Virus record (IMG/VR): IMGVR_UViG_3300034104_000851
Location: 1-58,385 of that record
Strand: one strand, 5' to 3'
Source of the DNA: a virus
Lineage: Duplodnaviria; Caudoviricetes
Length of the DNA stretch: 58,385 nucleotides
Under the pieces are notes generated by a model that ran no database searches, was not told the origin of the DNA, and saw only the letters and a list, made by a program, of their open reading frames with translations. Position numbers and translations under genes: made by a program. Shown here in pieces: positions 35,760 through 36,056 of this stretch. Position 1 is the stretch's first letter. The number at the start of each line of letters is the position of its first letter.

Positions 35760-35956
35760 CAGACCATGATGATGAGGACGACGAATTGGCACTGCCCGAA
35801 CGATACATCGAACGCGCAGGCGAAACCTTAGCCTACCGCTTGATGGAATATCTGGAATTTCTGGGCGTGATAGGCAAGGACCATGTGTCTTACTTGCGCT
35901 ACCCGCCCATTGAATTGATCGAGGACGCCGAAAAGGCGTTGAGGGATGAGGAATAA
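35756..35956 (+). CDS. Acidic hypothetical protein
   Basis: AAGGA RBS; last gene of the early operon. Confidence 0.65.
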   Translation: MTDHDDEDDELALPERYIERAGETLAYRLMEYLEFLGVIGKDHVSYLRYPPIELIEDAEKALRDEE

Positions 35957-35994
35957 ATAAAAAGCCCCCTGCGGAGTGAGGACGCAGGGGGCTT
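35955..35994 (-). terminator. Intrinsic terminator of the replication operon and sRNA
   Basis: 12-bp perfect stem followed by TTTATTT on the minus strand. Confidence 0.85.
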
Positions 35995-36026
35995 AAAAAG
36001 GTCAGCGGAGCATCACCGACCCTATC
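35955..36026 (-). ncRNA. Putative two-hairpin anti-RBS sRNA
   Basis: GGUCGGUG-AUGCUC-CGCUGACC and AAGCCCCCUGCG-UCCUCACUC-CGCAGGGGGCUU plus U-tract; TTGACA promoter directly upstream. Confidence 0.65.
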
Positions 36027-36056
36027 CATATATCATTGCAACCAAATGGTTGTCAA
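36027..36056 (-). promoter_or_regulatory. Promoter overlapping the primase stop codon
   Basis: TTGACA-N17-ATATAT(G); palindrome CAACCA-TT-TGGTTG across the spacer. Confidence 0.6.

Follow-up and report, generated by a model that had tools for sequence, protein, structure and literature searches.

The DNA considered here, called the window throughout, is a whole IMG/VR entry (record IMGVR_UViG_3300034104_000851), a metagenomic record of an uncultured, freshwater-type podophage with 58,385 bases and 54% G+C, and our subject is a small two-hairpin element that lies directly behind its primase gene. The replication genes, encoding a DUF2800 protein, a protein of 220 amino acids (aa), a family-A DNA polymerase (PolA) and a primase-helicase, are carried by the minus strand in a block that ends at position 36053. 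Converging on this block is a plus-strand chain of 17 small abutting genes, running from 31969 to 35956, for which the label 'early' is assigned by position and size. The RNA element occupies the 96-base gap that separates the two. The primase-helicase itself is 781 aa long, with DUF5906 and a sub-threshold RepB-primase match. On the minus strand the whole candidate region runs from 36056 to 35955, and its parts, with lengths in nucleotides (nt) or base pairs (bp), are the following:

36051–36056, minus: putative -35 box TTGACA, overlapping the primase stop codon TGA at 36055–36053
36027–36035, minus: putative TG-extended -10 element, TG (36035–36034)-n-TATATG (36032–36027), with an 18-nt spacer from the -35 box
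35999–36022, minus: hairpin 1 (predicted fold), 9 bp including two G-U pairs, loop AUGCUC (36013–36008)
35995–35998, minus: A/U-rich, predicted single-stranded linker joining hairpin 1 to hairpin 2, its UUAA being conserved in relatives
35962–35994, minus: hairpin 2 (from the fold and a terminator scan), 12-bp G+C-rich stem, loop UCCUCACUC (35982–35974), putative intrinsic terminator stem
35955–35961, minus: U-tract and presumed RNA end, where conservation among relatives stops

An earlier note on this DNA had described on the minus strand a TTGACA built over the primase stop, an ATATAT 17 nt further on, two hairpins and a U-tract. These are confirmed, and all coordinates and sequence statements of that note proved to be accurate. 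The ATATAT represents an alternative -10 frame, to which the TG-n-TATATG frame with its longer spacer is preferred. The predicted minus-strand fold has an energy of -48.3 kcal/mol (z = -5.3), matched by none of 200 shuffles, and the plus-strand fold one of -42.5 kcal/mol; as the note had claimed, hairpin 1 is strand-specific and is largely lost on the plus strand, where hairpin 2 is followed by UUAAAAAGG. Together with the U-tract, hairpin 2 conforms to the definition of an intrinsic (Rho-independent) terminator, and the minus-strand hairpin is listed by the terminator scan. The UUAA linker and the U-tail might, as we infer from their composition, form an Hfq-type site. No Rfam 15 family matches anywhere in the window at gathering thresholds; for positions 35900–36120 the best matches below threshold are NsiR1 with 25.3 bits (39), ncS54 with 24.8 (43) and ar14 with 23.7 (58.8), and at E values up to 10 this segment yields 19 weak families, C4 not being among them. 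A minus-strand open reading frame (ORF) that starts inside the element (35676–36029, 117 aa) was rejected as a gene because its ATG is not conserved and indels break its frame; since indels of 1, 6 and 22 nt separate the relatives, no reading frame is conserved in the element.

Conservation was followed in the best 80 of 422 IMG/VR stretches matching the primase, with 72–100% primase identity, and counts across these loci refer to related phages that are not phylogenetically independent. The two-hairpin element stands directly after the primase stop codon in all 80. A covariance model, built from an alignment of 35 distinct element sequences (A1), finds exactly one full-length match per locus, in the window and in 80/80 loci, and always in the primase sense. 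The model has no match in five examined relatives, L082 (53% primase identity) and L084, L085, L086 and L088 (58–63%). By an independent route, an 18-mer from the primase start was used as an exact pattern; it occurs in at least 118 IMG/VR stretches, from which 80 loci (L090–L169) were examined, 34 of them new relative to the primase-search set. Wherever these loci extend far enough downstream the element is present (59/59), in 58 cases by the model and in L169, which has a longer stem, by eye.

The pattern of change within the element is that of a structured RNA. Over the whole structure 91.5% of the cells of A1 are paired as against 85.3% in shuffles, 14 pairs have changed on both sides, none of 500 shuffles matches the covariation score, and slid controls are paired in only 36–52%. 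Hairpin 2 is paired in 100% of cells, with seven pairs changed on both sides, and takes 20 distinct 5' arms of 10–16 bp across the 80 loci; hairpin 1 is paired in 93.6%, with four such pairs. Many pairs of hairpin 1 are G-U in A1 and would become A-C on the opposite strand, so that this hairpin is specific to the primase-sense strand. The loops behave differently from the stems: the hairpin-2 loop core CUCACU (CTCACT) is kept in 80/80 loci and the full 9-nt loop UCCUCACUC in 57 of them, while the hairpin-1 loop core TGCTC[CT] is found in 75/80, the loop reading UUGCUCC in many relatives and AUGCUCC in the window. The linker (T65, T66, A67 and A68) is invariant in A1, and a T-rich tail follows hairpin 2 in 80/80 loci, beyond which the sequences diverge completely. 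Taken together, these comparisons support a discrete, strand-specific, structured RNA element at this place, and they likewise support selection on the loop sequences while the stems covary.

It is extremely improbable that the element works instead at the level of DNA, whether folded as a single strand or bound by a protein, and serves for example as an origin, as a place where primase or helicase is loaded, or as a signal for single-strand initiation. Initiation sites of this last kind typically contain hairpins, and the element adjoins the gene of a primase-helicase whose N-terminal part weakly matches a RepB primase (22.8 bits, with the cut-off at 24.3). However, G-U pairs, stable when made of RNA, have been retained on just one of the strands, and hairpin 2 runs into a U-tract. 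The element is also not rich in A+T, it is accompanied by neither iterons nor clustered repeats, and the complementary motifs described below lie at translation starts in the mRNA sense.

Among the relatives, 14 (L045, L047, L051–L053, L056, L057, L060–L062, L065, L068, L069 and L072) have some 22 extra nt between the two hairpins, which look like a partial duplication of the hairpin-1 loop and 3' arm. RNAfold predicts one long hairpin for them, which may offer alternative folds. The idea that the insert forms a third loop (GCUUUGC), aimed at GCAAAGC in GGAGCAAAGC-type sites, was dropped: RNAfold prefers the long hairpin, and GCAAAGC in the 14 insert loci lies mostly away from starts. In L082 (GenBank MW202483.1, 53% primase identity) positions 6427–6480, shortly after the primase, hold a TTGACA box and an unrelated 9-bp hairpin with the loop UUUGGA. 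This hairpin does not match the covariance model, is accompanied by no GAGUGAG sites, and may represent an element without homology that has the equivalent place in that genome.

Both loops are complementary to sequences at the starts of the replication genes, in or near the Shine–Dalgarno (SD) position. The sites in question are the following:

38384–38401, minus: predicted primase start hairpin GCGAU-GAGUGAGG-AUCGC, 5 bp, with the AUG (38398–38396) partly in the stem
38403–38408, minus: primase SD region GGAGCA(A), loop-1 complement, present in most relatives
40366–40383, minus: predicted PolA start hairpin AGAAG-AGUGAGAA-CUUCU, directly before the AUG at 40365
1564–1571, minus: DUF2800-A site GAGTGAGG / GAGUGAGG, loop-2 complement before the ATG at 1557

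The earlier note had listed complements of loop 2 at the primase, PolA, DUF2800-A and two early genes, and each was recovered at its position. What it had missed is that the primase site lies inside the coding region and that the primase and PolA motifs are shown in small hairpin loops, a kissing-loop geometry.

The primase site is among the best conserved. The loop-2 complement GAGTGAGGA at 38388–38396 corresponds to primase codons 2–4 and not to the SD, and the loop of the primase hairpin plus the next A make up the 9-nt complement of loop 2. This hairpin is the predicted minimum-free-energy hairpin, with a stem of -5.3 kcal/mol. The 18 nt of the primase start are identical in 72 of 73 loci; in L083 the site differs only in having G-U where the closing G-C pair would be. 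No synonymous change is seen in codons 2–5 (Ser, Glu, Asp, Arg) of 57 distinct sequences, while codons 6–40 vary freely, and the invariant residues F8, G14 and L15 use two to four codons each. Conservation on the side of the targets is not explained by protein coding. The locus that departs from the 18-nt identity, L055, has the target GAGUGAGA, a perfect complement of its own shortened loop UCUCACUC, and provides one fitting case of loop–target co-variation.

Before PolA, GAGTGAG at 40373–40379 is a complement of loop 2, and AGTGAG is found at this site, just after the stop of the 220-aa gene, in 58/58 loci. The stems that flank it, read directly from sequences whose loop lengths differ, are of four kinds (GAAG/CUUC, CAGGU/ACCUG, GGUUG/CAACC, and GGAUG/CAUCC or CGUCC); complementary arms are present in 56 of the 58 loci, and the 3' arm is lost or damaged in the other two. 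For the primase and the PolA sites, both partners are predicted to display the pairing bases in loops, as kissing loops do. In seven loci (L005, L022, L042, L053, L057, L075 and L076) a gene inserted between the 220-aa gene and PolA takes the AGUGAG hairpin start, and PolA there has an ordinary start. The DUF2800 start is dimorphic among the 33 relatives in which it is in view, with AAAGUGAGGUAC (GTGAGG, which fits loop 2) in 20 and AAAGGAAGGUUC (GGAAGG, which does not) in 10. Both alleles occur in the window: DUF2800-B, which the earlier note rightly held to be without the site, starts at 42240 with GGAAGG in place of GUGAGG.

The five relatives without the RNA are also poor in the motif, with two copies of AGTGAG in 43.9 kb where 21 are expected and none at a start, and their primases lack the MSEDR start. 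A protein recognising AGUGAG loops was entertained and set aside, as it leaves unexplained why the element has the complement and not the same sequence.

Further complements of both loops were found before early genes, where those of loop 1 before 32583, 33552 and 34532 had, like the one at the primase, been proposed before and are borne out:

31956–31963, plus: SD of early gene 31969–32184, GGAGTGAG / GGAGUGAG, predicted loop-2 duplex -14.8 kcal/mol
32776–32783, plus: SD of early gene 32789–33019, GGAGTGAG / GGAGUGAG, predicted loop-2 duplex -14.2 kcal/mol
32570–32575, plus: SD GGAGCA(A) of early gene 32583–32765, predicted loop-1 duplex -10.9 kcal/mol
33542–33548, plus: SD GGAGCAU of early gene 33552–33785, 7 nt, best predicted loop-1 duplex, -12.3 kcal/mol
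34520–34525, plus: SD GGAGCA(A) of early gene 34532–34717, predicted loop-1 duplex -10.9 kcal/mol

When 54 starts of the window are ranked by duplex energy with loop 2, the primase comes first (-17.2 kcal/mol), followed by DUF2800-A (-16.0) and early genes 31969 (-14.8) and 32789 (-14.2), with PolA in sixth place (-12.6); for loop 1, three early genes and the primase take the first four places. The expectation that late starts would score low holds, the median duplex energy being -8.7 kcal/mol for early and replication starts and -6.7 for late ones (Mann-Whitney p = 0.0099). An enrichment of GAGTGAG at starts, which had been suggested as a check, is seen in part: the window contains seven copies against 7.1 expected, but five of the six copies outside the element lie at translation starts. 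Against composition-matched shuffled loops, in a curated set of 53 starts (ORF chains and homology), loop 2 has five start-region sites where 0.50 +/- 0.92 are expected, a number reached by 15 of 1000 shuffles, and loop 1 has four where 0.93 +/- 1.21 are expected, reached by 47 of 998. In sum, the sequences support complements of the loops at the starts of primase, PolA, DUF2800 and many early genes.

The relatives put these sites into a wider frame. Ribosome-binding sites (RBSs) were pooled from the early-gene strand of the 80 loci, a site being any GGAG with an ATG or GTG 4–11 nt downstream at which an ORF of 45 codons or more begins. In the resulting 307 distinct contexts GGAG is most often extended by CAA (68) or TGA (67), with GAT (21) in third place among the 3-nt extensions; GGAGUGA, the complement of loop 2, and GGAGCAA, the complement of loop 1, are the two commonest extended SD classes. 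The late structural genes (3914–31178, minus) mostly have UAAGGA-type SDs with A/U-rich spacers. The phage can be said to use two SD dialects, GGAG-type with fixed extensions for early and replication genes versus UAAGGA-type for late genes.

Might the element nonetheless be an ordinary terminator and mRNA-stability module, in which hairpin 2 ends transcription of the replication operon, hairpin 1 serves to protect the 3' end or to bind a host protein, and complementarity follows from C/U-rich loops? Hairpin 2 with its U-tract fits an intrinsic terminator listed by the scan, the location between convergent gene blocks is apt, and composition-matched shuffles reach the start-site counts in 1.5% and 4.7% of trials. 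We nevertheless consider this quite unlikely. A terminator has no need of a fixed loop, yet CTCACT is kept in 80/80 loci across 20 stems, and such a module leaves unexplained the invariant primase 18-mer without synonymous change, the covarying PolA-site hairpin that displays an exact complement, and the joint absence of RNA and motif in more distant relatives.

On this evidence we propose that the phage probably encodes an RNA of about 70 nt that lowers translation of replication and early genes by loop pairing, and our best reading is a kissing-loop RNA acting in trans and/or as an operon 3' untranslated region (UTR). The RNA would be 68–70 nt long, on the primase-sense strand, from roughly 36022 to 35955, and would arise from its own sigma70-type promoter over the primase stop, from the 3' end of the replication-operon mRNA, or from both. 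It would consist of hairpin 1 (loop UGCUC-C), the A/U-rich linker, the terminator hairpin 2 (loop CCUCACUC-C) and the U-tail. Loop 2 would pair with (G)AGUGAGG motifs at translation starts, which at the primase would form the loop of a small hairpin holding the AUG and at PolA the loop of a hairpin at the SD position, first contact at both being made loop to loop; it would also pair at DUF2800 and at the GGAGUGAG-type SDs of early genes. The partners of loop 1 would be the GGAGCA(A)-type SDs of the primase and of further early genes. Pairing inside the ribosome footprint would block 30S binding and turn down replication and early translation, and late genes would escape through their different SD type (UAAGGA). 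A conserved single-stranded seed together with conserved complementary target sites, as looked for in a trans-acting small RNA (sRNA), is found here in the predicted loops and at the primase, PolA and early RBSs.

The sign of the effect deserves comment. Repression is expected because the duplex would take up the G of the primase AUG and, in PolA and the early genes, the sole bases that resemble an SD. Activation is conceivable, in that the same pairing would open the small hairpins around the primase AUG or the PolA SD and thereby turn translation on; the primase AUG is partly in a predicted stem of -5.3 kcal/mol, and the bases at the PolA SD position are in a hairpin. We regard this as very improbable, since the duplex would cover the G of the primase AUG with codons 2–4, and at PolA and the early genes the sole SD-like bases, and would thereby occupy the ribosome footprint.

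A number of observations weigh against the proposed repressor and are brought together here. As to pairing, the loop UCUCACUC occurs in twelve loci, only L055 having a fitting change of target; the eleven others keep the usual primase target through a G-U pair. In L079 and L081 the loop is GCUCACUA and the target is unchanged, which leaves 6 bp. The loop-1 pairing at the primase SD, which had been proposed on the strength of this genome, is present in the window and in most relatives, but GGAGCA is replaced (e.g. by GGAGAACC or GGAAGGGAAAC) in several, with loop 1 unchanged (the loci without it are L015, L019, L025, L032, L064, L074, L076, L078 and L079); judged from these sequences, the pairing is dispensable in several relatives. 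At DUF2800 the loop-2 site is present in only 20/33 loci. Flanking stems of at least 4 bp accompany about one third of the early-gene sites, near chance given the flexible search, and display of the motif in a hairpin is supported for primase and PolA but not for the early genes. C/U-rich loops match purine-rich SDs partly by composition alone. The enrichment within the window is moderate when taken alone, and strong support comes from the comparison with relatives.

The promoter is the other point of doubt. TTGAC is invariant in A1 while the 15-nt spacer varies freely, and TG-n-TA is invariant as well (T26, G27, T29 and A30), with variation in the last two positions of the hexamer (TATACT, TACAAT, TATACG and others). 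A conserved TTGAC/TG-n-TA with a variable spacer constitutes a putative promoter pattern, which would place the RNA start at about the foot of hairpin 1. Also to be counted against the proposal, the promoter is not listed by the promoter scan, because the scan requires a T at hexamer position 6, and the -10 hexamer is without the usual final T in many relatives. In the ten most distant carriers (L071–L081 except L072), moreover, hairpin 1 begins on the primase stop or no more than a few bases from it, the TTGACA box as such is absent, and only a weak TTGCAT-N15-TGnTAA pattern is seen, inside the primase gene. With hairpin 1 at the stop codon, any independent promoter of these ten would have to lie inside the primase gene, and their layout means that the element may arise as an operon 3' end, from its own promoter, or both; as far as the sequences go, a 3'-UTR origin is as possible as an independent transcript. 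Contigs from RNA libraries (four runs, shares of sampled words at most 0.13) come from mixed relatives, mostly less than 95% alike, and were counted neither way. Relatives often have an inverted repeat as their spacer (36037–36050, minus), with a sequence that differs from case to case (AACCAUUUGGUU, CUGAUAUCAG, CGCG..CGCG). It may be an operator, a 3' hairpin of the mRNA or of no significance. As a structured feature this repeat was not retained, with only 66.9% of cells paired, and no claim is made for it.

The layout of the distant carriers bears directly on a reading in which the element acts in cis only, the hairpins at the 3' UTR of the DUF2800-PolA-primase mRNA folding onto its own starts and making its translation self-limiting, with the early-gene matches being secondary. 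A precedent is the staphylococcal icaR mRNA, in which an anti-SD 3' UTR pairs with the mRNA's own 5' region. Besides the start of hairpin 1 at the primase stop in these ten carriers, it is in keeping with this reading that the three best-conserved targets (primase, the PolA site and DUF2800) are on the element's own transcript. A purely cis-acting role is still unlikely in our estimation, as the TTGACA/TG-n-TATA pattern with its variable spacer in 70/80 relatives suggests that the RNA begins immediately upstream of hairpin 1, and a cis-only role leaves unexplained why RBS classes of early genes, on the opposite strand, match both loops.

The proposed RNA belongs to none of the systems that it most resembles, namely c4, OxyS-fhlA, the plasmid copy-control RNAs and T4 RegA/RegB, which are its nearest analogues. 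OxyS is a host stress RNA of unrelated sequence; the likeness lies in the primase start, which offers two sites, GGAGCA at -13 and GAGUGAGGA at +3, just as two OxyS loops were reportedly found by Argaman and Altuvia in 2000 to pair with the fhlA SD and a site in its coding region, blocking translation. Plasmid copy-control antisense RNAs are small and constitutive. With CopA-CopT of R1 and RNA I-RNA II of ColE1 the element shares, by prediction, a loop-loop first contact with a hairpin in a replication-gene mRNA, by which a replication protein would be controlled, and also CUCA in loop 2, invariant among the 80 loci, which we take to be a YUNR-type sequence as in copy-control RNAs. Unlike CopA and RNA I, which are cis-encoded and fully complementary, it has its gene 2.3 kb away from the primase start, with no more than 6–9 nt in common with each of several targets; full complementarity from the opposite strand is not found. 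In phage T4, the translational repressor RegA and RegB, which cuts GGAG in early mRNAs, shut down early and replication translation and late genes escape. These agents are proteins, whereas the agent proposed here is an RNA with loops fitting two SD dialects.

The c4 RNA of P1 and P7 is encoded upstream of its target and is processed. It has one target, the ant operon, and serves lysogenic immunity, whereas the element here has many candidate targets, lies downstream of the best of them in a phage with no lysogeny genes among the proteins scanned, has no C4-family match in Rfam at E values up to 10, and occurs in a different genomic setting. What the two would have in common, going by the available part of a review, is a phage-encoded small RNA that acts on an mRNA of the same operon, short complementary stretches, presumably in loops, around the RBS, and a block to translation (PMC12197685). 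The loop of the element's terminator hairpin is also its main predicted pairing site, which brings to mind sRNAs that pair through terminator loops. A role for such loops in regulation is described in a paper from 2024, in as much of it as was available (PMC11979758); the RNAs in that same portion are host RNAs with iron-uptake targets (PMC11979758), and they have no homology to the element.

Some features of the record need to be borne in mind when it is used. In a self-comparison, positions 1–20195 are about 90% identical to 40672–58385; the two record ends carry the same genes from two strains, which are 81–91% identical (90–91% in the longest blocks), and the relatives are 37–39 kb long. 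From the repeated ends and the length of the relatives it follows that the record was assembled, as a wrap-around or chimera, from two strains and spans about 1.5 genome lengths, and that the phage measures roughly 38 kb and not 58 kb; this also accounts for the presence of two DUF2800 genes (A and B). The record is rated 100% complete despite being of about 1.5 genome lengths. Matches in PHROG and Pfam include portal, terminase, major head, scaffold, head-closure and tail-spike proteins, and also helicase, DUF2800/PD-(D/E)XK nuclease, a nucleotidyltransferase-like protein and the family-A DNA polymerase, and no lysogeny genes were seen among 26 proteins scanned. An 822-aa tail-fibre-like gene has internal direct repeats at 11155–11720 and 11809–12553, of about 290–300 nt and 78–82% identical. 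Megablast against phage records gave no match to a phage. The best tblastn match is an uncultured podovirus at 53.5%, without the element, and no cultured relative exceeds 53.5% primase identity. A search for the host in contigs of bacterial genomes returned only seven contigs of metagenome-assembled genomes, from mixed phyla.

The earlier note had interpreted the element as an RNA switch that shuts off early and replication translation, an interpretation that the comparison with relatives partly supports. Its further ideas, of a stand-in for a missing repressor and of a frame taken from alphaproteobacterial sRNAs, gained no support. Several uses of such an RNA can be imagined: the RNA gene, copied along with the genome, could provide dosage-linked feedback; the RNA might effect an early-to-late switch or the exclusion of related phages; and perfect antisense from read-through of the convergent early operon might neutralise it. 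It is a tentative and rather doubtful suggestion that a clade of virulent-type podophages achieves its early-to-late switch, and perhaps superinfection exclusion, with a single RNA of about 70 nt that works through RBS dialects. The early and replication genes would then use two dialects (GGAGUGAG and GGAGCAA), one for each loop, and a third, the late UAAGGA, would stay unbound; the RNA gene would lie at the end of the replication operon, its promoter output scaling with genome copies, so as to combine a plasmid copy-control-like RNA with an RNA version of T4 RegA/RegB, and antisense from early-operon read-through could delay its action.

According to the available part of the review cited above, phage sRNAs are known mainly from temperate phages and prophages, and their targets are one phage gene or host genes (PMC12197685). 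Full-text literature searches, and the same part of that review, yielded no such RNA and none addressed to a phage's own RBS classes, a result on which the sRNA list in the review's Table S1 could bear (PMC12197685). The covariance model can be used to annotate the element in metagenomic phage genomes. If the proposal is true, a widespread uncultured phage clade, to judge from the primase-start 18-mer in at least 118 IMG/VR stretches, would possess a multi-target RNA, and differences in SD flavour between gene classes could serve as an addressing code for RNA regulators.

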